IMG/VR virus record: IMGVR_UViG_3300028042_000003
Location: 42,166 to 106,165 of that record
Length of the DNA: 64,000 nt
Strand: one strand, 5' to 3'
From: a virus
Under the pieces are notes generated by a model. The model searched no databases, was not told the origin of the DNA, and saw only the letters and a program-made list of their open reading frames with translations. This document shows positions 18,460-62,612 of the stretch, one piece after another. The translations under genes were made by a program, and so were the position numbers. Each line of letters opens with the position of its first letter. The first letter of the stretch is position 1.

Positions 18460-19224
18460 GTGCAAAAATACTTATTAGAACCAGTACTTTCAAGTGAATT
18501 GATATTAGTTCGAAACGCCAAAAAACTCAAAGAAGATCCAAGTTTATTACATGAATCAAACCTAGATCGTATTGAAGAACTCCGTGAAGAATTTTATCAG
18601 TTAGACTTACTTTCAGTTGGGGGCCAAAAGGGTCTACAAAAACAAAAAAGACAAGTTAGAGACGAAATTACAGATCTCAGCTCTGAAACATTCACAGCAA
18701 GAAATAACAATCTGTTTGGGATGATGATTACAAATATGGCAGACAAAATTTTATCCAGACCTCAGTTCAGCAACTACACATACAAAGACGAAATGAAATC
18801 ACTAGCTTTACAACACATTCTAAGTTATTGCTGGAACTTTGACCCGTACAGAGTTTCTAAAATAACAAACCAACCTATCTCAGCATTCGCATATATCTCG
18901 ACGATCATTTTTAATGCTTGTATTGCTACTATCAATAAACAGAAGAAAGAGCAAGCCAAGAGTAAAGAAAGCTTTTTGGAACATCAAAAGTTGATACACA
19001 GAGATCCGAATTGTTCCACGTTTGGAGCAGACTTCGAAAATGCTAAAATGAAATACGACCTACCTAATCTTATACAAGATGACCTTCTAAAAGAAATCAA
19101 AAGCCACACCATTACAGAAGCTACAGAATTTTGGATTCCCGCGGACTATAAAATTACTGAGAAAGAAACAGACTTCGTATTGAAGTACGCATATAATCTT
19201 AGTATCAGACGACTAAAGGACTAA
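18460..19224 (+). CDS. gp55: Late-transcription sigma factor (T4 gp55-like)
   Basis: FGMMITNMADKILSRPQFSNYTYKDEM...NFDP...AFAYISTIIFNACI gp55 signature. Confidence 0.85.
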   Translation: MQKYLLEPVLSSELILVRNAKKLKEDPSLLHESNLDRIEELREEFYQLDLLSVGGQKGLQKQKRQVRDEITDLSSETFTARNNNLFGMMITNMADKILSRPQFSNYTYKDEMKSLALQHILSYCWNFDPYRVSKITNQPISAFAYISTIIFNACIATINKQKKEQAKSKESFLEHQKLIHRDPNCSTFGADFENAKMKYDLPNLIQDDLLKEIKSHTITEATEFWIPADYKITEKETDFVLKYAYNLSIRRLKD

Positions 19225-19225
19225 G

Positions 19226-19735
19226 ATGCATCAAATGTCTCAAAAGGAAATAAAAGACCTCAGAGAGTTATTGCTAAAAAGAAATAAAGGGAAGTGTCCA
19301 ATTTTGGACATTCCACTCCACCCAACAGACGCTGCTTTAGACCACGCCCACGAATCTTCAGAATGTAGTGAAACTGCAGAAGGTCAAATACGTGGAACGA
19401 TTCATAAGTTTGCTAACAGTTTAGAAGGCCAAATGCGTTCTAAATTTAGACGATCTGGTGTTGCTAAGTATATCAGTTTTGAAGATTTTCTTTTCAATCT
19501 TTATACTTATCTAATGGACTCAAGAGAATTATATCTTCATCCAAGTCATAAACCAAGACCAAGAAAGCTAATGAAGCAAAGCTATAACAAGCTAAAAAGA
19601 GAAATAACCAACTGGAACAGACTAGCGGCTAAGCCCATAAAGATGCCAGATTATCCTAAGTCAAAAAGACTTACTAAAAAACTAAAGGAACTTTATGAAA
19701 AATTCGCCATATACCCAGAATTTTATAGCAAATAA
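19226..19735 (+). CDS. Recombination endonuclease VII (T4 gp49-like)
   Basis: KCPIL...AALDHAH...GQIRGTIHKFANSLEG EndoVII motif. Confidence 0.8.
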   Translation: MHQMSQKEIKDLRELLLKRNKGKCPILDIPLHPTDAALDHAHESSECSETAEGQIRGTIHKFANSLEGQMRSKFRRSGVAKYISFEDFLFNLYTYLMDSRELYLHPSHKPRPRKLMKQSYNKLKREITNWNRLAAKPIKMPDYPKSKRLTKKLKELYEKFAIYPEFYSK

Positions 19736-19961
19736 CGAGTTAGAGATAGTAGAACTACTAAATGAGATATCCAAAATACCAGAAAAAAGTCTTTTGGATA
19801 AAATAGTAACTTACTGCGAAAAGTTTGACTTGGACCCACAAGATATAGGTGATGCGTTAGGTGACTCTGAACAATTCAAGATGATGTTGCATACAGAACT
19901 TGAACTAAATCATGTATTTCCAATGTCCAAAGAACCTACAATACAAATAGACGAGTGGTAG
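19695..19961 (+). CDS. Late-transcription coactivator (T4 gp33-like)
   Basis: LLDKIVTYCEKFDLDPQDIGDAL...LHTE pattern; located next to gp55. Confidence 0.65.
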   Translation: MKNSPYTQNFIANNELEIVELLNEISKIPEKSLLDKIVTYCEKFDLDPQDIGDALGDSEQFKMMLHTELELNHVFPMSKEPTIQIDEW

Positions 19962-19962
19962 G

Positions 19963-19996
19963 TTTAATGTTCGTGTAAGTTCTTTTATGTTATAAT
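19963..19996 (+). promoter_or_regulatory. Long-class early promoter, consensus TTTAATGTTCGTGTAAGGTATATTATGTTATAAT (34 bp); copies at 19963, 21920, 28869, 32651, 42413, 44387, 46808, 48422, 53254, 60476, 63403
   Basis: Eleven similar intergenic copies, each spanning exactly 34 bp to the end of TATAAT and followed by an AAGGA RBS. Confidence 0.85.
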
Positions 19997-20019
19997 AGTA
20001 CATAACAAAAGGAGAACAC

Positions 20020-23354: not shown

Positions 23355-24293
23355 ATGTTATCAGTAAACGAAAAAGAATTTATTTGGATTGAAAAATACA
23401 GACCAAAAAATATCGACGATATAGTCCTTCCAGAAGCAGTAAAGAATGATGTGAAAGCATGGATAAAACAAGGTGAGATTCCTAACCTTTTGTTATCAGG
23501 TAAGATTCCTGGGACAGGTAAGACTTCTTTATGTCATACAATTATTGAAGAACTCGGAGCAGATGCTTTATTCGTCAATGCCAGTCTTGAGAGTAATATT
23601 GACCTACTAAGAAATAGAATACTTGGGTTTGTATCCACCGCCAGCTTTGATGATAGACCTAAAATTGTAGTTCTAGATGAAGCAGATTTCTTGAACCCAA
23701 ATTCTACCCAACCTGCCTTACGTGGATTTATTGAAAAGTTCAGTAAAAACGCTAGATTTATATTGACTTGTAATTATAAAAATAAACTAATTGAACCTCT
23801 AAGAAATAGACTTATTGAAATTGATTATGACGAGATGTACCAAAATAACAAAGCAGATATGCTAAAACAAACGGCAAAAAGAACCATAGAGATTCTGAAA
23901 AACGAGGAAATCAAATACGAAATGGCTGATCTAAAGTGGTTGTTGCAACACTTCTATCCAAGTAACAGAAAGATCATCAACTCATTACAAGAATACAGTA
24001 ACACTGGTGCTCTTTTGATAAACAAAGATGAAGCAGACCAGGACTCCCTAGCAAGCTTGGTAATTGAAAACATCATGAAAAAAGACTTCAAAGGTCTAAA
24101 AGCAACTATAGAAAAAACTGCTGATAGTTCAAGTATCTTCAGAATGTTATATGACCAAATAGAAACGTTTCCACTTGCGGTAAGACCACAAATCATAGTA
24201 TGTATTGCTAAATACCAAAGCTACGACAGCATGGTAAGGGACCGTAATATCAATTCAGTTGCGTGTGCTACTGAAGTTATGAGCATCATATGA
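23355..24293 (+). CDS. gp44: Sliding-clamp loader large subunit (T4 gp44)
   Basis: WIEKYRPKNIDDIVLP, GKIPGTGKTS Walker A, VVLDEAD Walker B, RFILTCN. Confidence 0.92.
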   Translation: MLSVNEKEFIWIEKYRPKNIDDIVLPEAVKNDVKAWIKQGEIPNLLLSGKIPGTGKTSLCHTIIEELGADALFVNASLESNIDLLRNRILGFVSTASFDDRPKIVVLDEADFLNPNSTQPALRGFIEKFSKNARFILTCNYKNKLIEPLRNRLIEIDYDEMYQNNKADMLKQTAKRTIEILKNEEIKYEMADLKWLLQHFYPSNRKIINSLQEYSNTGALLINKDEADQDSLASLVIENIMKKDFKGLKATIEKTADSSSIFRMLYDQIETFPLAVRPQIIVCIAKYQSYDSMVRDRNINSVACATEVMSII

Positions 24294-24763
24294 GTTGGGT
24301 AGATTGGCCTGAGGACGAGGCTACACCCCAAGAGGAAAAAGTATCCACGGCCCCAAAAGGCTTGACTTCTTGGCAGGTAATGTCTAGTTTATTCAAACCT
24401 GAGATAAAACCTAACAAAGAAGAAATAGCTGGAATCAATAGTTTCTTTTTGTGTTCTTATTTGAGTAACAACAGACACTCTATGCCTATAGCATCAGCAT
24501 TGAACCTTTGGTATAACATTCCAGTTCCGGTGCAGTATAGATTTGCTAAAGATTATAGTGATATGGTAGGTATGGCAAAGAAGATAAAGTTCATTAGCTT
24601 CAGCAAGAAAAAACTACCAGAAGAAATGATAAAGATTATAGATAATATTAGTAAAATTTATAATATCAACAACCAAACTGCTATGGAATATTTCAACTTG
24701 ATGTCAGATGATGAAAGAAACAAGATGTATAACTTCTATGAACATGGAATTCAAAAGGGATAA
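24290..24763 (+). CDS. gp62: Clamp loader small subunit (T4 gp62-like)
   Basis: INSFFLCSYLS...LN...IPVPVQYRF...ISKIYNINNQTAMEY pattern, directly after gp44. Confidence 0.75.
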   Translation: MSWVDWPEDEATPQEEKVSTAPKGLTSWQVMSSLFKPEIKPNKEEIAGINSFFLCSYLSNNRHSMPIASALNLWYNIPVPVQYRFAKDYSDMVGMAKKIKFISFSKKKLPEEMIKIIDNISKIYNINNQTAMEYFNLMSDDERNKMYNFYEHGIQKG

Positions 24764-29954: not shown

Positions 29955-32639
29955 ATGAGATTATTTGAGGACAGCTGGACTGTCAAAGGCAAAACCTACA
30001 TCAGAGAATATTCTGAAGACCTAAAGAAATCAATCAAGCGTGAAACTCCCCACAAATCAGAATACTATGTTCAGGATACATTAGGAACCTATAAAGGTTT
30101 CCTTGATGGTAAGTCCCTTCGTAAAGTAGAAGGTTCAGCGTATAACATCAATGGAGCATATGGTGAAAAGTCAGCTAAATATGTAGCAATCCGAGATGAA
30201 TATTTCGGTAAAGAGCGATATAATAAAGCACCTAACACTTGGTATCTAGATATTGAAACTAAAGTGGGATATAACAGTACCGGATTCCCAAACGCAGAGG
30301 ATGCGGCAGAAGAGATATGTCTAATACAATTATGGGATACTAACACAAAAAAGGGTTATGTCATTGGTTTAGAAGAATGGTATAACAGAAAAGATTACAC
30401 CTACGACTTCGATTTGGAATATATCAAATGTACAGATGAACGAGACCTTATCGAAAAGTTTCTTGAGATGTTCAAAGAGCTAGATCCATTTATGATCTAC
30501 GCATGGAACGGTGATGGATTTGATTACCCTTACATTTTCAACAGACTAAAGAATCTTAAGATCAATACAAATAGACTAAGCAACTACGGTTCAGCTACAT
30601 TGAAAACTAAAAAACTAGATAATGGTCAGTTGGTTCATAGTGTTCAAAGTCAAGGACACCAGTTTATGGATATGATGGTTGTTTATAAGAAATTTGTTTA
30701 CTCTAATGTACCAAATTATTCCCTGGATACTATAGGTGAAATAGAAACTGGCGATAAAAAAATCAACCATGATAACTATTTGAAGTTTGATGATTTCCGT
30801 ATTGGTAAATACAAAATCCTTGGGAACGAATCCCAAGAACAAAAGAACAAGAAACTTCATAAAGCGGCCGTAGCTCTTGAAACACTAGATAAAGAAGACC
30901 CAAGAAGAACAAAGCTACAGACATATATTCAACAAAAAAGTTACAGTGACTTCGTTGATTATGGTGTAAGAGACTTTGTGCTACTAAAGGGCATACATGA
31001 TGCTCAGAACTTCACAATGCTTATGACCAACATGGCAGACCAGATGGGTTGTTTGTTGGGTGATGTACTTGGTACACTCAAAGCATGGGATTCTTATATC
31101 ACTAATTACATAAGTAAAGACAATCTAATTGCTCCACCAAAAGAGTCAAGTGATGAACAACCTAATGTAGTAGGTGGGTTCGTTAGAGCCTCAGAGATAG
31201 GTAAACATAGATGGATTCTTAGTTCGGATGTCAACTCTATGTATCCACTTTTAGGTATGGCTAGTTTCAATATGTCACCTGAGACATGGATACCATATGC
31301 AGAAAGACATCCTGATGTACAAATGATATCAGATATACTAAAAACTCAAGATGAAGATAAAATACTTGAAATTACCACAGAACAATGGGCTAAAATCAAA
31401 GCAATTGCACAAGAACATAATGTAGCCCTTGGAGTTGGTGGTGCAGTGTACAGAAAAGACACCCAGGGAGTAATTCCTCAGTTGGTAACAAAGATTTACG
31501 GTGGACGTAAACAAGCCAAAAAAGAACAATTTCAATGGGAACAAAAGTCAATTGACCTCAAAGAACAAGGTAAAGACCACAGCCAAGAAGATCATTTTGC
31601 CACGTTGAAAAATACAGAACAAATGACAGCTAAGATCCAAATAAACAGTTTGTATGGCGCCCTAGCGGCTAAGCATTTCAGTATGTACAACGAACAAATA
31701 GCACAATCTATTACTGGTTCAGGTAGATACTTTATCAAAATGTTAGCAAATGACGTAGAAGATAAATTACAATCAATGATAAAAAGTAAAGAACCATATA
31801 TCGTAGCGGGTGACACGGATTCAATTTACTTTCAAATTGCTCCATTTATTGACAAATATACACAAGGTAAGACAATTACCGAAAAGACAAAGTGGGCAGA
31901 TGCGTTCTACAAAAAGGTAATAGAACCAGTAGTTCAAAAAAGCATCCAAACACTAGCTGAGAATCTAAACGCTTTTGACCCTAGTTACATCGGGGCAGAG
32001 CGTGAGATTATAGCAGATGCTGGTATGTTTGTAGCTAAGAAAAAATATGCAGCAAGAGTGAGAGACCTAGAAGGTAAGATTTATCCAGAAAATGACCCTT
32101 ATATGAAAATACAAGGACTAGAAATCATCAAAGGTGGAACTGCCCCATTCTCAAAGAAGTATCTCAAAGAAGCTGTTCCAGTTATTCTAGATTCAGATGA
32201 AGATGGAATTAGAGAATGGTTCAATAATGTAAGATCTAAATTTCTCCAGGTTCCATTAGATGAGATATCAAATACAGCTGGAGTATCTAAAGTGTACAAT
32301 CCAGATTGGGGTAAAGTTATCAATGGACGTAAGGTATCTATCCCTTTCGGTTCTAGGATTTGTGTAACTACAAATAAATATCTAGAAGCCCAGGAACTAA
32401 CAGAGAACTACTCAAAAATAGAAGGCGGCGACAAGATAAAGGTGTTATTCCTAAGACAACCTAATGCATTATCATCTGAAGCATTCGCGTACAATGATGT
32501 TAGATTTGCTGAGATGTTCAAGAAAGATATAGACTATGACACCACGTTCCAGAAGTTTTTTGTATCTCCTTTACAAGGTATGCTAGATGCTATTGGAATT
32601 GACCTAAATAAAAATACAGAAGAAATTGATATTTGGTAA
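29955..32639 (+). CDS. gp43: Family B DNA polymerase (T4 gp43-like)
   Basis: YLDIET exonuclease I, AWNGDGFDYPY, SSDVNSMYP, KIQINSLYGAL, AGDTDS, KKKYA. Confidence 0.97.
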   Translation: MRLFEDSWTVKGKTYIREYSEDLKKSIKRETPHKSEYYVQDTLGTYKGFLDGKSLRKVEGSAYNINGAYGEKSAKYVAIRDEYFGKERYNKAPNTWYLDIETKVGYNSTGFPNAEDAAEEICLIQLWDTNTKKGYVIGLEEWYNRKDYTYDFDLEYIKCTDERDLIEKFLEMFKELDPFMIYAWNGDGFDYPYIFNRLKNLKINTNRLSNYGSATLKTKKLDNGQLVHSVQSQGHQFMDMMVVYKKFVYSNVPNYSLDTIGEIETGDKKINHDNYLKFDDFRIGKYKILGNESQEQKNKKLHKAAVALETLDKEDPRRTKLQTYIQQKSYSDFVDYGVRDFVLLKGIHDAQNFTMLMTNMADQMGCLLGDVLGTLKAWDSYITNYISKDNLIAPPKESSDEQPNVVGGFVRASEIGKHRWILSSDVNSMYPLLGMASFNMSPETWIPYAERHPDVQMISDILKTQDEDKILEITTEQWAKIKAIAQEHNVALGVGGAVYRKDTQGVIPQLVTKIYGGRKQAKKEQFQWEQKSIDLKEQGKDHSQEDHFATLKNTEQMTAKIQINSLYGALAAKHFSMYNEQIAQSITGSGRYFIKMLANDVEDKLQSMIKSKEPYIVAGDTDSIYFQIAPFIDKYTQGKTITEKTKWADAFYKKVIEPVVQKSIQTLAENLNAFDPSYIGAEREIIADAGMFVAKKKYAARVRDLEGKIYPENDPYMKIQGLEIIKGGTAPFSKKYLKEAVPVILDSDEDGIREWFNNVRSKFLQVPLDEISNTAGVSKVYNPDWGKVINGRKVSIPFGSRICVTTNKYLEAQELTENYSKIEGGDKIKVLFLRQPNALSSEAFAYNDVRFAEMFKKDIDYDTTFQKFFVSPLQGMLDAIGIDLNKNTEEIDIW

Positions 32640-32696
32640 TCTTTTGGTTGTTTAATGTTCCTCTAAGGTATATTATGTTATAATAGTGTATTATTA

Positions 32697-32725
32697 GAAG
32701 AACTAGGTAACTAGACAGACTTCAT
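32697..32725 (+). other. Conserved 5'-UTR stem-loop, copy 1 (copy 2 at 53300-53333)
   Basis: GAAG-AA-CTAG-GTAA-CTAG-ACAGA-CTTC-AT between the long-class promoter and the RBS. Confidence 0.6.
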
Positions 32726-41208: not shown

Positions 41209-42378
41209 TTATGGTTTGATTAGTTTGTCTGAGAATATAATATCAGCTTGCATAATGAATGAACTTTTATTGTTTCCTGGAATTGCTTGTGTGTTTGTTC
41301 CTAATTCCACCTCAGTGATACTAGAATCGTATGTGTCAAGTGGGTTTGTTTCCCATGTGTCTCGCACTTTATAAAATATTTTACTTTGACCATCGAAGTA
41401 GTCTTCACCACCTTGTACTATTGTTTCATTATATGGCATATAATAAACAGATGATGTGCCAGCGTTTCCTCTGTATCCCATATAAATTACACCTTTATCT
41501 TCAGAATCAGATGCTGTTCCGCCAGTTACATTGCCGTAAAAATCATGTTGAAAAACTTTTATGTCCCCTATTGTAGTGACATAACCATTTTCGACACCTT
41601 TTGGGTTTATTTTACCACTTGTGAATATATCGGCATCTGAGTGTTGAGCACCGTAATATGTGCTAAGGTAAGATCCAATTTTTGGAGAAACTAAGATCCA
41701 ATATTGACCTGATTTACCAGTCGCTTTGAACAAGCTTTCTCTTAGTTCAGCTATTACACCAATAATTTCTTCCATAGCCGACCAATTAGCTATAGTAGCT
41801 TTACCTTTTTTAGTTGCCACATCAGCAATCCAATCAGTAAAATCTTTATTGATTTTAGATACAATTCTTTGTCTAGCCATACTCAAGAAGAATCTTGCTA
41901 GTTCGCCATTAGGTCCATTCCATACTTCCCCACCCGTTTGGATAAAGTTGTCATAGTTTTCTGGAAAATCACTACCAAATAAGTTTTGGATGTCCTGGGC
42001 TGTTTCGTTTGTTATGTCTAAAATTACTTCTCGGACTTGAGTTTCTGCTAATTTTCTTATTACCACAACGTCATCAACATCAGTGGGTATTTGTGTTCTG
42101 TCTTTCTGTTGAAGACCAAAAACGTACCCAACACTAGAAACCATAGGCTGAACATATGAAATCATATACGGTAAGCTTACAGAAATAGCATTCTTAGTCA
42201 TGATAGTTTTAGGTGCAGTTTTCGCAATATCAGTGGTTACTGTTGCTTGTTGTGATGATGTTGTTGTAGGTGTAACATTTTGAGGTTGACCAGTTCTTGG
42301 GTTCAGAGATGGTTGTGCTATTTGGTCAAAACCTTCTGATTCTTGTATCTGGTGTTCAAAGAGTATTTTTTCGCTCAT
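41209..42378 (-). CDS. Capsid-fold protein (T4 gp23/gp24 family), paralog A
   Basis: VQPMVSSVGYVFGL; IYMGYRGNAGTSSVYYMPY; late promoter at 42400-42407. Confidence 0.75.
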   Translation of the reverse strand: MSEKILFEHQIQESEGFDQIAQPSLNPRTGQPQNVTPTTTSSQQATVTTDIAKTAPKTIMTKNAISVSLPYMISYVQPMVSSVGYVFGLQQKDRTQIPTDVDDVVVIRKLAETQVREVILDITNETAQDIQNLFGSDFPENYDNFIQTGGEVWNGPNGELARFFLSMARQRIVSKINKDFTDWIADVATKKGKATIANWSAMEEIIGVIAELRESLFKATGKSGQYWILVSPKIGSYLSTYYGAQHSDADIFTSGKINPKGVENGYVTTIGDIKVFQHDFYGNVTGGTASDSEDKGVIYMGYRGNAGTSSVYYMPYNETIVQGGEDYFDGQSKIFYKVRDTWETNPLDTYDSSITEVELGTNTQAIPGNNKSSFIMQADIIFSDKLIKP

Positions 42379-57339: not shown

Positions 57340-58113
57340 ATGGTAAACATAATGGAAATATTTGGCTCGATTCAGGGCGAAGGTGAGAGAACCGGATACC
57401 CTAGTATCTTTGTAAGAAGTGGATTGTGTAACTTCACGTGCGAAGGCTTCGGTGTAGAATATAAAGACCCCAAAACGGGCGAAAGGAAATTTGGGTGTGA
57501 TTCGTATTACTCAGTCAACCCTGGTTTCAAAAAAGATTGGTCTTCTTATGTAGATTATAAAGATTTAGTGAAAGATATACTCAAAGAGGTCCCAGATTAT
57601 GGTGATTTTAGTATGACAAAAGCTGATATCGTCTTTACCGGTGGTGAGCCAATGATACACTGGAATGATGAGGTATATCAAAGAACCTTAGCTTATTTCA
57701 TCAGTAGAGGACACCATGTCACTATTGAAACAAACGCAGCAATGGATATTGAATTTACAAGAGAGTACCAAAAGAAGATTCAGTTTTCGCAATCAGTGAA
57801 GCTCAGTAATTCAGGGGAAGCTAAACACAAAAGAATCAATATTGAAACACTCACAAAAATAGCAGAAAATGCTCCTTCTTCTTATTTGAAATTTGTTATA
57901 GCTAAAGATACATGGGACGTAGATTTCAAAGAAATCAAAGAAATTCTAGAAGATATTCCGGCTTATGTTCAAATTTGGCTTATGCCTTTAGGCGATACAA
58001 GAGAAACAATGGCATATAATCAAATGTTCACATTACAGAAATGTACAGAGTTAGGTTTCAACTATGCTCATAGAGTTCACATTACTTTATTTGATAACGA
58101 GGCTGGCGTATGA
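57340..58113 (+). CDS. queE: 7-carboxy-7-deazaguanine synthase QueE (radical SAM)
   Basis: EIFGSIQGEGERTGYPSIFVRSGLCNFTC..GCDS, VFTGGEP, TIETN, HRVHITLF. Confidence 0.9.
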   Translation: MVNIMEIFGSIQGEGERTGYPSIFVRSGLCNFTCEGFGVEYKDPKTGERKFGCDSYYSVNPGFKKDWSSYVDYKDLVKDILKEVPDYGDFSMTKADIVFTGGEPMIHWNDEVYQRTLAYFISRGHHVTIETNAAMDIEFTREYQKKIQFSQSVKLSNSGEAKHKRINIETLTKIAENAPSSYLKFVIAKDTWDVDFKEIKEILEDIPAYVQIWLMPLGDTRETMAYNQMFTLQKCTELGFNYAHRVHITLFDNEAGV

Positions 58114-59720
58114 CAAAGAACATGACTCTAAGATATATCCCTAGTGCATTCCAATCGGCTGGGTCTTTTCTTACTGTTCACAAATATTACCCAAAACTAG
58201 CAGAAGATATGCTACTTGGGTTGGCTAATCAACACAAAGATATTGATATTGGTGTTCTATACAATGCGTTCTCAGAGAAATCAGACGCACCAGAGTTCAA
58301 TGCTATTTGTCGTCCTTTGGGCATAAAACAATATGCTGATTCAGGTGGACTCCAGGTTATGTCAATAGGTGCAGAAATTACTCCAGAAATCAAAAAAGAG
58401 ATATTTCATACTCAAATGGATAACTGCGATTACGCAATGTCATTTGATGAAATACCAGTTGGTTCAACACAAGAGGGTGAAGGTCTAAGACAAATGGACA
58501 CAAGATTCTTTATTGATGAGTGGTTCAAAACAAAAGCTATAGAATCAGGTAAAAATATTGTAGAGCAAATCAAAGTATTCAAAAAAGATCCAACTTCAAA
58601 AGCAAAAATCTTATTTATTATACAGTCAAGGAATTTTAAAACAGCAAGAGAGTGGTCTTGGTTTATGTTCCAAGAAATCAAAAAAGAACCTGATTATGAG
58701 AAATATATAGGTGGGTTAGCACTTGGAAACACCGGAGCTGGTGGACTAAGAAATGTTATTGACTTTACACTTAGATTCCAAAACGAATTAGACTTTTTAC
58801 CACTAAGCTGGAGAAAGAAAGTTCACATCTTGGGTGCTGGTAGTGTCAGTAGATTACTTGGTGCTTTATGTGTCTCAGATGAATATTTCCTACCTGGAAC
58901 TACAATTACGTGTGACTCCACTACACAGACAAGAGGACCAGTTTTTGGAAACTTTTTACTTTACCACCCAGAAACAGAATCTATGGAAAGCATTAGTCCA
59001 AGCAGAGGAATCAATCCTGAGAGTCTAAAAATGTGTGAAGCTCAATGGAAATATGCTAAACCGTATTTTGATAAGCACAAAAATGAGTACAGTCTTATCC
59101 CAACTGATGTTGATGACTTTAGAAATCATTACACAGAATATGCGGATAATGGACTAAGAAAAAAAGTTGATTTTGTTGATCTAATGGGCAAGTCAGATGA
59201 GTGTGATTATGAATACAGTAAGCGTTCTAGAATGTCGAGGTTCTTTTGGGCGATGACAATGATGCATAGTTTCTTAGATTTTATAGAATCTATCAAAGAC
59301 CGTTCAGATAAATATAGAGCAGGTAACCATGCAGAGCAGGTAAAAATACTAAGATCTCTAAAGCGAAGTTTACCTCAAAAATTATACAAGCCAGCAGAGA
59401 AACTTATGGCACTAAGATCACATAATCAGTATATCCAATCAGAGAATTTAGCTGGAAGTGGGCATCCTTATACGACAATACTCCCTATAGAGTCTCAGAA
59501 CGACGTCATTGACGGGATATTAGAGTACAAAGGCACCAAGTATCAAACGGATTTATACCAAGGACAACTTCTTGGACGTGAATTAGAGTCACTTACAGCA
59601 GGAAAAGACGAGATGTTCCCAAAAGACACCAGAAGCAAAATACTTGTTTTATTACAAGGGCTAGTCTTAGATGTTCAAAAAACAGAAAAAATAACAAAGG
59701 TAGAATTAGATGAGTGGTAA
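58110..59720 (+). CDS. TGT-fold transglycosylase, DpdA-like DNA 7-deazaguanine insertion enzyme
   Basis: YADSGGLQV, MSFDEIP, FIIQ, GGLALG, HILGAG, TCDST match TGT-family motifs; lies between queE and folE. Confidence 0.75.
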   Translation: MTKNMTLRYIPSAFQSAGSFLTVHKYYPKLAEDMLLGLANQHKDIDIGVLYNAFSEKSDAPEFNAICRPLGIKQYADSGGLQVMSIGAEITPEIKKEIFHTQMDNCDYAMSFDEIPVGSTQEGEGLRQMDTRFFIDEWFKTKAIESGKNIVEQIKVFKKDPTSKAKILFIIQSRNFKTAREWSWFMFQEIKKEPDYEKYIGGLALGNTGAGGLRNVIDFTLRFQNELDFLPLSWRKKVHILGAGSVSRLLGALCVSDEYFLPGTTITCDSTTQTRGPVFGNFLLYHPETESMESISPSRGINPESLKMCEAQWKYAKPYFDKHKNEYSLIPTDVDDFRNHYTEYADNGLRKKVDFVDLMGKSDECDYEYSKRSRMSRFFWAMTMMHSFLDFIESIKDRSDKYRAGNHAEQVKILRSLKRSLPQKLYKPAEKLMALRSHNQYIQSENLAGSGHPYTTILPIESQNDVIDGILEYKGTKYQTDLYQGQLLGRELESLTAGKDEMFPKDTRSKILVLLQGLVLDVQKTEKITKVELDEW

Positions 59721-60480
59721 AAAATTTACGGACAGAGCACAAGCTCAAATGAAATATGTCAAAGAGGGTTACAACCCTAAAGACTTCGAAGAATACTATG
59801 ACGAATATCTCAAATGCCCAGCATTCAAGATCAACCAAAACGTAGAAGAAGTAGGCGGCATCAGTGAAGAAGCTCATTTTATTATGCGCACTATAGCCCA
59901 AGAAAAACTCAAAGAAGTTTTTGAAATTATGAAAATAGACCTAACAGATGATAACGTCACAGAAGATGAATCTTTTGGTAACATTGGAACACCAGGTAGA
60001 ATCATCAAAATGTGGACAGGTGCTGGATTACATGACGACCGCGAATTACTTTCAGGTAGATGGTCTAAAAAGCCAAGATTAGCTAAGTTTCCAAATACAC
60101 ATGATACTCATATTCCAATCACCAAAAGGGTAGATCTAACTGCCGTTTGTTCACATCACATGGCACCGTTTTCTACTACATTCAGAGAAGATGCTTATGC
60201 TGTCATTTCATATATCCCAGCTGATTTTGTGTTGGGTATATCTAAACTACAAAGACTTACTGATTGGATTTCACAACGTGGATGGTTGCAAGAAGAACTC
60301 AGCCAGAAAATTTATCAAGAGATAGCAGAAGTAGCAGAAACTGATTCTGTTTACGTCAAGCTTTATAACGTGGTTCATACTTGTGAATCTCTAAGAGGGG
60401 CAAAATCAAAAGATGGCGCGTTTACCTCAGAATACTACGGCGGGAAGTACAAAAAAGCAAAGGTTAGAGCACAGCTTTAA
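59710..60480 (+). CDS. folE: GTP cyclohydrolase I FolE
   Basis: TPGRIIKM, VCSHHMAPF, LGISKLQRL, RGWLQEEL, HTCESLRG. Confidence 0.92.
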   Translation: MSGKKFTDRAQAQMKYVKEGYNPKDFEEYYDEYLKCPAFKINQNVEEVGGISEEAHFIMRTIAQEKLKEVFEIMKIDLTDDNVTEDESFGNIGTPGRIIKMWTGAGLHDDRELLSGRWSKKPRLAKFPNTHDTHIPITKRVDLTAVCSHHMAPFSTTFREDAYAVISYIPADFVLGISKLQRLTDWISQRGWLQEELSQKIYQEIAEVAETDSVYVKLYNVVHTCESLRGAKSKDGAFTSEYYGGKYKKAKVRAQL

Positions 60481-60528
60481 TCTTCGTGTAAGGTATATTA
60501 TGTTATAATAATACATAAAAGGAACATA

Positions 60529-61041
60529 ATGTTAGTAAACACCAAAAAGCTAAACGTCTGGGGCCAAGAAGGATTTGACCTCACCGAAAAAGCTGAGAGA
60601 AAAATAACCGAAATGGTTTTTGGAACTATTGATCATGTCACTAAGGGTAACTCACCAGGTTATGACGTCCAAGCTATGGGCCTTAAGATAGAAGTAAAAT
60701 TCACAAACTCCAATACAATTTTTATTGAAACCTCAAGATTTGATGGAACCCCAAGTGGGCTTTCTGTCACTCAAGCAGACTATTACCTTGTTGTGCATAC
60801 TGGTTATTTCAATAAAAAAATAGGAAAGGTAAAACTTATCAAAACCTTGGACCTACATGACCTAAATAAATCTATGGTCTGCAAAGAAAAAGTTTATAAG
60901 CCGTGGGCACAAGGTTCGCCTGGAGCTAGAGGTTTCGTCATTGACCGAGAATTAAAAAACGATGGATGGGTTGGTAACATCAACTTCAACGAAGAACATA
61001 ACGCATTTGATCTTAGCAAATGGACATACAAAAAAGGATAG
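60529..61041 (+). CDS. PD-(D/E)xK restriction-like endonuclease
   Basis: PGYDV..KIEVK catalytic motif; IETS..GTPSGLSVTQADYY. Confidence 0.65.
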   Translation: MLVNTKKLNVWGQEGFDLTEKAERKITEMVFGTIDHVTKGNSPGYDVQAMGLKIEVKFTNSNTIFIETSRFDGTPSGLSVTQADYYLVVHTGYFNKKIGKVKLIKTLDLHDLNKSMVCKEKVYKPWAQGSPGARGFVIDRELKNDGWVGNINFNEEHNAFDLSKWTYKKG

Positions 61042-61044
61042 AAT

Positions 61045-61524
61045 ATGAAATTTGGAAAAAAAGAAGAAGTAATTATTACAGATACGGTAACACTAGGTGG
61101 ACTAGAATTTGTCAAGGTAGGTTCTTATAAAAAGAAAACATCAAGAAATAAAGGGTCTGGTAAATCAGAACGTATTTGTTTGGAACTCGATATTGGACAA
61201 GCAAACCTTGTTCAGAAAAAAGGAGTTTATACTTTTATCGAAACTTCAAAGGCTACTATTAGATATATTGGAAAATCTCTATCAGAAAGGGGTGTCAAAA
61301 GTAGATTAGACGCCCATCACAAATCCACAAACAACAAAGCAAACACAACGAAAAAATACACAGATTTCAGAAAATATCTTCATAATTGTGATGTGTATGT
61401 ACATATTCCAAAAAATACTTCGTATAAAGGCTTAGCTATTAATCCTTCATCTTCGATTGAAGAAGCTCTAATTGAAAAGTATAAACCTACAGCAAATACT
61501 ATAGAGTCTCTAAAAAACAAATAA
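61045..61524 (+). CDS. GIY-YIG nuclease
   Basis: GVYTF...RYIGKS...SRLDAH...IEEALIEKYKP. Confidence 0.75.
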   Translation: MKFGKKEEVIITDTVTLGGLEFVKVGSYKKKTSRNKGSGKSERICLELDIGQANLVQKKGVYTFIETSKATIRYIGKSLSERGVKSRLDAHHKSTNNKANTTKKYTDFRKYLHNCDVYVHIPKNTSYKGLAINPSSSIEEALIEKYKPTANTIESLKNK

Positions 61525-61532
61525 GGACAAAC

Positions 61533-61928
61533 ATGACGGACATGCATTACTCTAAAGACCGAGACTCGAGGGTCAAAGAAACCGGTGAGGTATTCACACC
61601 TCCTGAACTTGTCAACAAGATGCTAAATGAACTAGATTATGATTGGGAAAATAAACCCCAAAGAACGTTTCTTGACCCTACTTGTGGCTCGGGAAACTTT
61701 CTTGTTGAAATAGCCAAGCGAGGTATCCACCCAGAAAATATTTATGGCGTTGACCTAATGCAAGATAATATTGACACTACCAAATCACGTCTCTTGGACA
61801 TTCATCTTGCGAACGGGGTGTCGATAGAAGACATAGAGTTCCATCAAGAAAGAAACCTGGTACAAGGTGACGCATTGACGTATGATTACAGTTTTTGGGA
61901 AACACCAGAACTAGAAGAAATTTGGTAG
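61533..61928 (+). CDS. Short SAM-binding DNA-methyltransferase-like protein lacking the catalytic NPPY motif
   Basis: GEVFTP, FLDPTCGSGNFL, IYGVDL, VQGDAL, then ends ~15 aa later. Confidence 0.7.
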   Translation: MTDMHYSKDRDSRVKETGEVFTPPELVNKMLNELDYDWENKPQRTFLDPTCGSGNFLVEIAKRGIHPENIYGVDLMQDNIDTTKSRLLDIHLANGVSIEDIEFHQERNLVQGDALTYDYSFWETPELEEIW

Positions 61929-61982
61929 GCCTTAGGTGACTTTAAGAATATAATGTTATAATAACAAAACAAAAGGAATAAA

Positions 61983-62612
61983 ATGAAAACAATAATTGAT
62001 AAAAGCTTCAGCTTCTGTTATGGCCACAGAGTTCATAACCAAAGATTAGATACAAATTTTACAGAATCAGGTGATGCTTGTTTAGCTTGTAGACATCTAC
62101 ATGGACATGAGGGACTAATCAAAGTATTTCTTGAAGAAGAACCAGGTTCAACAAACCTCAAAGACACCGGAATGGTAACGGATTTCAAACACCTCGGGTG
62201 GTTCAAAAACTTCCTTGATGATACCCTAGACCATAAAATGATTCTGGATATCAAAGACCCACTTGTATCAGAAGAATTAGGTTGGTTGCTAAATCATGAA
62301 GCGCACCTTGATTTTAGTCTCCTACACAAAATGCCAGAGGGTTTTTGGGTTCCAGATATGACACAAATAACACAAGGGATAAAAACTTTACAAGATGGAT
62401 ATGGTGGCCCGTCAGTAGATTCTCCGAAAAGCAAAGCAATTCTTGAGAAATACGAAGGTATTATTTTAGTTGATTTTGTCCCTACATCAGAAAACTTATC
62501 AGCTTGGTTACTTAGCGTAGCACAAGAAAAAATGAAAGATCTCCCTGGAGTAAAGGTACAAGCAGTAGAATATTGGGAAACACCAAAAAGTCACTGTAGA
62601 GTAGAGGCGTAA
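61983..62612 (+). CDS. queD: 6-carboxytetrahydropterin synthase QueD
   Basis: FCYGHRV...CRHLHGH, GMVTDFKHL, LDH, PTSENL, WETPKS. Confidence 0.9.
   Translation: MKTIIDKSFSFCYGHRVHNQRLDTNFTESGDACLACRHLHGHEGLIKVFLEEEPGSTNLKDTGMVTDFKHLGWFKNFLDDTLDHKMILDIKDPLVSEELGWLLNHEAHLDFSLLHKMPEGFWVPDMTQITQGIKTLQDGYGGPSVDSPKSKAILEKYEGIILVDFVPTSENLSAWLLSVAQEKMKDLPGVKVQAVEYWETPKSHCRVEA

Follow-up and report, generated by a model that had tools for sequence, protein, structure and literature searches.

In phage T4, gp33 and gp55 bind the sliding clamp gp45 via a C-terminal LDFL motif (review PMC9690074), and the T4 tails read from NC_000866 are ..KASLDFLFG in the DNA polymerase gp43, ..NTLDFLL in gp33 and ..SPSLDFLYEAND (..SLDFLYEAND) in gp55. 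Phages also encode DNA transglycosylases of four subfamilies, DpdA1-4 (Hutinet 2019, PMC6884629; Hutinet 2023, PMC10516641), and phage 7-deazaguanine modification has been concluded to be post-replicative (Hutinet et al. 2023, PMC10516641), which raises the question of how a base-exchange enzyme reaches new DNA before host nucleases do. We analyzed a stretch of 64,000 nucleotides (the window), positions 42,166 to 106,165 of the IMG/VR virus record IMGVR_UViG_3300028042_000003, which is part of a single viral contig of 125,228 bp with 35.5% GC, from an uncultured phage of the T4-like type. Four proteins encoded in the window, among them the replicative DNA polymerase and a DpdA-like transglycosylase, end in a short acidic tail with a terminal Trp. 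The tails are conserved in relatives, co-vary with the polymerase tail across lineage-specific tail types (dialects) and are predicted to be disordered, and the genome encodes a clamp and a clamp loader. We consider it likely that the tail, Φ-D/E-x-W-COOH (Φ being L, I, M or V), is a Trp dialect of the T4-family clamp peptide that docks the four proteins on the clamp. The first-pass annotation had proposed the tail as this phage's clamp-binding motif, with the transglycosylase and a methyltransferase-like protein on the clamp, and the comparative evidence supports that proposal. The tail-bearing genes and their tails are as follows.

19695..19961, + strand: 88-aa gp33-like late-transcription co-activator candidate, ends ..IQIDEW (based on position, size, tail and Atlas similarity)
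29955..32639, + strand: T4-type family B DNA polymerase (gp43-like), 894 aa, ends ..NTEEIDIW (PF00136/PF03104; phrog_262, E 1.8e-184)
32619..32636, + strand: polymerase tail EEIDIW, reference copy of the proposed clamp-docking peptide, at the position of T4 gp43 ..KASLDFLFG
58110..59720, + strand: 536-aa DpdA-like (TGT-fold) DNA transglycosylase, ends ..KVELDEW (based on AlphaFold model, Foldseek, DSGGLQ motif and gene context)
59700..59717, + strand: DpdA tail VELDEW (W536 conservation, pLDDT, predicted interface)
61533..61928, + strand: 131-aa mini "half-methyltransferase", ends ..PELEEIW (S-adenosylmethionine (SAM)-binding motifs X, I, II and III only)
61908..61925, + strand: mini half-methyltransferase tail ELEEIW (family tails follow the same-genome polymerase tail)

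All four C-termini read as first described, on the + strand: ..TIQIDEW in the 88-aa open reading frame (ORF), ..TEEIDIW in the polymerase, ..KVELDEW in the 536-aa ORF and ..PELEEIW in the 131-aa ORF. A greedy ORF set gave 111 genes for the window and 198 for the whole genome. Terminal Trp occurs in five of the 198 non-overlapping ORFs genome-wide, four of which carry the acidic Φ-D/E-x-W tail, the fifth (..FHWSKW) being a non-acidic protein from the structural block. No further convincing acidic-Trp tail emerged when all 955 ORFs of at least 30 aa were rescanned. Terminal Trp alone is unremarkable (5 seen vs ~2.7 expected). Enrichment of the longer patterns was judged against how often each of them occurs internally in the proteome. 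Terminal Trp with at least two acidic residues among the preceding four was seen 4 times vs 0.27 expected (Poisson P 1.9e-4), the same pattern plus a hydrophobic residue 4 times vs 0.13 expected (P 1.1e-5), and the full motif is 15-30-fold enriched at termini, although the pattern was defined post hoc and these P values are therefore optimistic. Conservation across genomes carries more weight. At the nucleotide level the four tails differ and are not copies of one another. Overlap with a downstream gene is confined to the DpdA tail, where the ATG of FolE lies within GAT-GAG; the other three precede intergenic DNA, so overlapping coding does not account for the common peptide.

The T4 consensus S/T-L-D-F-L-F/Y/L is not matched by these tails, which share only its Φ-D core; the acidic-Trp tail is thus a variant of the T4 clamp-interaction motif and not its canonical form. 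We surveyed polymerase tails among the 150 best matches in a 1.84-billion-protein library of cluster representatives. Within these matches, the ~27 close polymerase representatives (35-52% identity, intact C-terminus) all end Φ-D/E-x-W, and more distant T4-like polymerases end L-D/E/S-x-F-F. These sequences indicate that a whole polymerase clade has swapped an F-rich tail for a Trp tail. The nearest cultured polymerase relatives are those of Vibrio phage phiKT1024 (..ESLDDW) and Campylobacter phage CP220 (..ETLEEW). Single-sequence searches of IMG/VR viral contigs with the polymerase or the DpdA-like protein returned no close relatives, and alignment-based scans were required.

The transglycosylase tail is also conserved within its own family. 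An [L/I/M/V]-D-x-W end was found in 15/15 full-length DpdA-like relatives (39-100% identity), in which W536 is invariant and D534 is retained in 14 of the 15, with only 20-40% conservation at positions 526-532. A syntenic 58-kb metagenomic contig has 39 genes, of which only DpdA encodes a terminal Trp. Residues 530-536 have pLDDT <50 in an otherwise confident model, as expected for a flexible tail outside the fold.

A partner shared with the polymerase predicts that homologs elsewhere carry the tail type of their own polymerase, and they do. The correlated terminal conservation in DpdA-like and gp43 homologs, which the first-pass annotation had named as a check, was observed both within the W dialect and across dialects. 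In the cyanophage BUCT-ZZ01 (a Synechococcus phage), the polymerase ends ..STLDDFFS and DpdA ..ASLDSFFD. Polymerase/DpdA pairs from IMG/VR contigs end ANVMDFFS/TNLMDFV, PSLDDLFE/TTLDELFE, YSIDDFF/VDISSFF, ATLDDLF/ASLPEDF, SSLEDLFG/STLEGLF and NTLDF/NILDL. Across 15 genomes, the DpdA tail is closer to that of its own polymerase than to the tails of other genomes (permutation P 5e-6; P 8e-5 without this phage). The mini half-methyltransferase behaves in the same way (exact permutation P 3.5e-4, 8 genomes): polymerase and mini half-methyltransferase end TLESFFG/GLEAFF and SLESFFT/GLEGFFV in cyanophages, FQSLFEF/WNQLFEI and FKSLFDFGE/WNDLFEE in two "SLFEF" genomes, and QIDEDEW/AYMDEW in an independent genome in which both tails end in Trp. 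Shared ancestry of the genomes lowers the effective sample size of these tests but cannot itself create the similarity of the tails, because there is no homology between the two proteins of a pair. Long contigs in which no T4-type polymerase was detected (G003, G007-G009, G011, G012, G019, G023 and G024) contributed no pairs.

The replisome in which these tails would function is a complete one of the T4 type. The window encodes gp43, the gp44/62 loader and a DnaB-like helicase, together with a gp55-like sigma factor and endonuclease VII, and a gp45-family clamp, gp32, primase and FEN/RNase H lie just outside it. The clamp, which the first-pass annotation expected elsewhere in the genome, is indeed encoded there, and its best PDB matches are RB69 gp45 (1b77/1b8h, E 6.5e-4) followed by T4 gp45 (1czd).

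23355..24763, + strand: gp44/gp62 clamp-loader genes (phrog_168 at E 8.6e-88; phrog_225)
L001:7117-7806 (genome 113117-113809), outside the window: gp45-family clamp (phrog_223)

The complex of the clamp trimer with DpdA residues 497-536 was predicted in three runs alongside three controls. The ipSAE was 0.48 (median of the three runs) vs 0.00-0.02 for the controls; in calibration the ipSAE mark was reached by 51/78 solved complexes and 2/108 mismatched pairs, and values of at most 0.60 count as a weak pass, so the prediction was graded as weak support. The predicted interface involves only DpdA residues 528-536, placed on one clamp subunit against clamp residues 29-36, 107-115, 187-189, 206-213 and 224-230. 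These contacts fall between the two domains of that subunit and at its C-terminus, a region that we take to be the usual client site on sliding clamps. RB69 gp45 has reportedly been crystallized with the gp43 C-terminal peptide (1b8h). We also observed that FEN/RNase H (L001:15356-16138) ends ..LPEEEIPF, resembling ..EEIW with P-F replacing W, and that the gp32-like single-strand-binding protein (L001:7849-8865) ends ..DELDDLLDEFDL; these acidic-aromatic tails could be further docking peptides.

The identity of the 536-aa protein rests on fold and motifs, its sequence being highly divergent. It matches no Pfam family at E up to 0.01, the TGT model PF01702 included, and only phrog_10773 (function unassigned) among the phrogs; a profile of its family searched against the PDB gave at best E 0.95, to TGT. 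The AlphaFold model is nevertheless confident (pLDDT 91.6, pTM 0.90), and the top Foldseek matches are TGT structures (E 5e-7, probability 1.00), with 7ui4, the bacterial DNA preQ0 insertase DpdA, at rank 6, so that the TGT/DpdA-like label given from sequence is now backed by the fold. D77-S-G-G-L-Q82, D113 and D269 are invariant in 42 DpdA-like sequences, and the family profile aligns DSGGLQ with the catalytic DSGGFQ of TGT. The protein is nearest in sequence to the KVP40-type proteins, which are DpdA2 (PMC10516641). The gene lies between those for QueE and FolE with QueD nearby, a synteny repeated in the 58-kb metagenomic relative, and the product is a putative enzyme exchanging guanine in DNA for 7-deazaguanine. 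Neither phiKT1024 nor CP220 gave a match when searched with the DpdA-like protein, and the DpdA of CP220 belongs to the unrelated DpdA3 subfamily (PMC10516641). A blastn search of the locus against cultured phages returned only FolE similarity, in Campylobacter phages. The 7-deazaguanine genes are as follows.

57340..58113, + strand: QueE-like radical SAM enzyme of the 7-deazaguanine pathway (PF04055; 50% identical to the CP220 homolog)
59710..60480, + strand: FolE (GTP cyclohydrolase I), its start overlapping the DpdA tail codons (PF01227, E 3.9e-25)
61983..62612, + strand: QueD, PTPS family (PF01242, E 4e-23)
L001:3718-4479, outside the window: QueC-like gene

The "methyltransferase-like" label of the 131-aa protein held in part. 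PF02384 matches it at E 3e-8, over profile positions 21-95 of 311 only, and the SAM-binding motifs X (GEVFTP) and I (FLDPTCGSGNFL) are present, as are II and III. The protein stops 16 residues after motif III (GDAL), and we found no catalytic motif IV (D/N/S)-P-P-(Y/F/W), no full seven-strand fold and no target-recognition domain; the catalytic half of a methyltransferase is missing. Its AlphaFold model consists of three beta-strands and a disordered tail (residues 129-131 pLDDT <50), and its structural neighbors are the SAM-binding cores of methyltransferases of 150-1200 residues, which it covers only in part. Judged by motifs and model, the protein is a conserved free-standing SAM-binding half of the methyltransferase fold, not a complete enzyme, and it should not be filed as a methyltransferase. 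Three other assignments were ruled out. It is not DpdM, the preQ1 methyltransferase, which is a DUF3109 metalloprotein (PMC10516641); D-Y-S-F is not a degenerate motif IV on grounds of spacing, as it lies 3-6 residues after motif III and before any beta-4 strand; and the neighboring GIY-YIG ORF has not split a longer gene to leave this protein as its N-terminal part, since the family is ~130 aa long and stands free in hundreds of clusters, and QueD follows the gene here. Among 120 homologs, 64 end acidic-W and 21 end F. The family is also very widespread in viral contigs (IMG/VR loci L140-L219), where almost every member has a short aromatic peptide at its end (..NSLFE, ..GNNLFEV, ..ENLFDFG, ..DQFFENKK). 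Judging by these C-termini, the family as a whole looks like a putative clamp client. Separately, a 159-aa ORF between a 170-aa ORF and the mini half-methyltransferase (window 61045-61524) has a weak GIY-YIG match (E 2e-3) and possibly encodes a homing endonuclease within the modification cluster.

Likewise, the "gp33-like" label of the 88-aa protein is upheld by position, size, tail and Atlas similarity but not by a profile match. The small acidic protein is located after the gp55-like sigma factor and endonuclease VII, and a weak homolog (E 2e-4), ending ..EKQEEW, directly follows gp55 in phiKT1024. In the ESM Atlas, its features reach 0.91 to PF16805 "late-transcription coactivator" clusters (TM 0.64/0.69), and 98/100 of its matches belong to the PF16805 set. 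The PF16805 hidden Markov model detects T4 gp33 at E 6e-28 but gives no match in this genome with E values up to 10 allowed, and a phmmer search of the PDB with the protein gave nothing meaningful. All four metagenomic homologs keep I-D/T-x-W, one of them with the Trp one residue from the end. The gp55-like protein was said to lack the motif, and its C-terminus, ..LSIRRLKD, bears this out.

18460..19224, + strand: gp55-like late sigma factor, without the tail (phrog_19643/phrog_234)

Polymerase-type tails are also found on DNA-modifying enzymes of other phages. The genome of phiKT1024 (OM249648, L007-L017) has 8 acidic-W termini vs 0.4 expected. Among their carriers are a D12-class Dam methyltransferase (PF02086; ..ELPNDEW) and a TET-associated glycosyltransferase (TAGT, PF20691; ..LQPNDDW), alongside the polymerase, the ORF at the gp33 position, a SLOG/YAcAr protein and a 377-aa protein ending ..LSDLDDW. 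As a side observation, the phiKT1024 polymerase gene is split by a small ORF. In BUCT-ZZ01, a 447-aa ORF between FolE and DpdA (L042:27-1370), with a weak glycosyltransferase-group-1 match, ends ..GSLEDFFND; its tail resembles that phage's polymerase tail, and it may be another tethered DNA-modifying enzyme.

In the mechanism that we propose, a Trp-dialect peptide at the end of a flexible linker would dock the replicative polymerase, the gp33-like late co-activator, the DpdA2-like transglycosylase and the SAM-binding half-methyltransferase onto the gp45-type trimeric sliding clamp. The transglycosylase would swap guanine in DNA for 7-deazaguanine from the neighboring FolE/QueD/QueE/QueC genes, and clamps remaining on new DNA would concentrate it on fresh duplex, so that base exchange would follow the fork. 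On the comparative evidence, DNA modification is probably physically tied to replication in this phage. That the proteins bind the clamp physically is inferred, as is any resulting gain in the efficiency of modification.

Co-variation with the polymerase tail shows that there is a shared partner, not which one, and the tail might instead dock on another replisome hub such as the gp32 single-strand-binding protein, the helicase or the clamp loader. The weakness of the complex prediction and the tail-less gp55-like sigma (gp55 being a clamp client in T4) leave some room for this alternative. We nevertheless consider it improbable, given that the polymerase tail occupies the position of the gp43 tail in T4 and RB69 and the clamp is in the same family as RB69 gp45, that the tail is also present, as in T4, on a gp33-type co-activator, and that the predicted contacts lie at the interdomain region and C-terminus of one clamp subunit with controls of 0.00-0.02. 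A tag at the C-terminus for degradation or sorting, recognized by a protease or the MoxR/VWA pair and unrelated to the clamp, would suit a genome that encodes a ClpP-like/prohead protease and makes heavy use of another C-terminal tag (~59 genes end [Y/H/F]-P-E-x-x-L). However, the four carriers of the acidic-Trp tail all act in DNA transactions, the early small proteins being without it, and the tail turns into the T4-type L-D-x-F-F where the homologs' polymerase uses that tail, which a degron model does not predict; we regard such a tag as very unlikely. Least credible of all, and already disfavored, is that the tails resemble each other by chance, through the composition of a proteome that is AT-rich and acidic, or because a recombination scar spread from gene to gene. 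In favor of this are a short motif chosen after the fact and the unremarkable number of terminal Trp residues as such; against this stand the enrichment of the full motif at termini, its invariance in relatives down to 39% identity beside a variable linker, the distinct nucleotide sequences of the four tails, three of them free of gene overlap, and the co-variation across dialects in unrelated genomes.

Docking on the clamp remains the reading that we prefer, and several observations weigh against it. The partner pLDDT was ~50 in the complex prediction, again graded as weak support. In the mini half-methyltransferase tail L-E-E-I-W, the hydrophobic residue is a position more distant from the Trp than in the other three tails, the Dam and TAGT tails of phiKT1024 have N and not a hydrophobic residue at position -3, and the gp55-like sigma is without the tail, unlike T4 gp55. 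In CP220, the polymerase is the sole W-tailed ORF, and an 84-aa ORF after the gp55-like sigma (L020:7569-7823; phrog_19223) ends ..FSDDF while the polymerase ends ..TLEEW; two presumed clamp clients of one genome thus differ in their terminal aromatic residue. The DpdA homologs of KVP40 and arguably pf16 are without a tail though their polymerases have one (KVP40 DpdA2, L040:1498-2877, ends ..FPAFKEQE, and the KVP40 polymerase ..TLESFFG), so tethering is not obligatory in the DpdA family. Finally, an interaction between T4 alpha-glucosyltransferase and gp45 has been reported (ref. 20 of preprint 10.64898/2025.12.06.692756) but was not reproduced in that preprint, and T4 alpha-gt, as read from NC_000866, has no clamp-type tail.

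Two further sequence features were observed near tail-bearing genes or at other C-termini. A promoter-like block (TTTAATGTTC ... TATGTTATAATAG) is common to 19962-20015, 32650-32700 and 61935-61980, directly 3' of the stop codons of the 88-aa, polymerase and mini half-methyltransferase genes, so that each of these tail-bearing genes closes a transcription unit. The separate C-terminal tag [Y/H/F]-P-E-x-x-L is present on ~59-70 small ORFs (window 20020-57289 and elsewhere) and is also found in the 58-kb relative (L049).

Taken more broadly, we lean towards the view that T4-like phages generally use the sliding clamp as a tool-belt for DNA hypermodification, in which DpdA, Dam, TAGT-type enzymes and the mini SAM-binding protein would each have acquired a docking peptide that co-evolves with the clamp in lineage dialects (L-D-x-F-F, x-S-L-F-E-F, Φ-D-x-W). 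If so, tethering would explain how post-replicative base exchange keeps pace with replication, and recruitment of a tailed DpdA to clamps left on nascent DNA would be a concrete answer to how the enzyme reaches its substrate in time. It would possibly also explain why modification by tail-less DpdA2 enzymes is so low, guanine replacement in DpdA2 phages being under 0.1% (PMC10516641); this link between tail and efficiency is conjecture. Our literature search found no publication connecting DpdA with a sliding clamp, and the word "clamp" is absent from PMC10516641. The Trp dialect would further offer an orthogonal clamp/peptide pair for the study of specificity co-evolution, and a sequence rule for predicting clamp clients in uncultured phages, namely a C-terminus matching that of the genome's own polymerase. 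Cultured relatives make the idea testable: BUCT-ZZ01 has a tailed DpdA, phiKT1024 a W-tailed Dam and TAGT, and CP220-type phages a W-tailed polymerase.

Among described systems, the DpdA2 enzymes of KVP40/nt-1/VH7D-type vibriophages share with the 536-aa protein the TGT fold, the DSGGxQ motif and a FolE/QueD/QueE/QueC neighborhood, whereas the protein described here is ~80-120 aa longer, is missed by the Pfam TGT model and carries the clamp-type tail that KVP40 DpdA2 lacks. The cyanophage cluster "T4-GC 34" (P-SSM2 PSSM2_037 and homologs, annotated hypothetical) is 36-38% identical to the 131-aa protein and shares its GDALxYDYxF block, again with a short tail behind it, but its ..GLEAFF-type ends match those of its own polymerases and are not Trp tails. 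With T4 alpha-glucosyltransferase this locus shares the idea of a T4-type DNA-modifying enzyme acting on the clamp during replication; no tail exists there, whereas the enzymes here carry an explicit, co-varying one. A further parallel is with the gp43, gp33 and gp55 peptides of T4/RB69, which are likewise extreme C-terminal, flexible and hydrophobic-acidic-aromatic and are borne by a polymerase and a late co-activator in phages with a gp45-family clamp and gp44/62 loader. They differ in consensus, S/T-L-D-F-L-F/Y/L as opposed to Φ-D/E-x-W-COOH with its single terminal Trp, and in clientele, in that the late sigma factor here is without the tail and DNA-modification proteins are included.

In animals, the interaction of DNMT1 with PCNA through a PIP-box couples maintenance methylation to replication. 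A DpdA docked on the clamp would be the bacterial-virus analogue of DNMT1 on PCNA. The proteins and the motif are unrelated, the enzyme here would exchange bases and not methylate them, and the arrangement here is known computationally only; yet in both cases a DNA-modifying enzyme would be recruited to new DNA via the peptide motif of replicative clamp clients.

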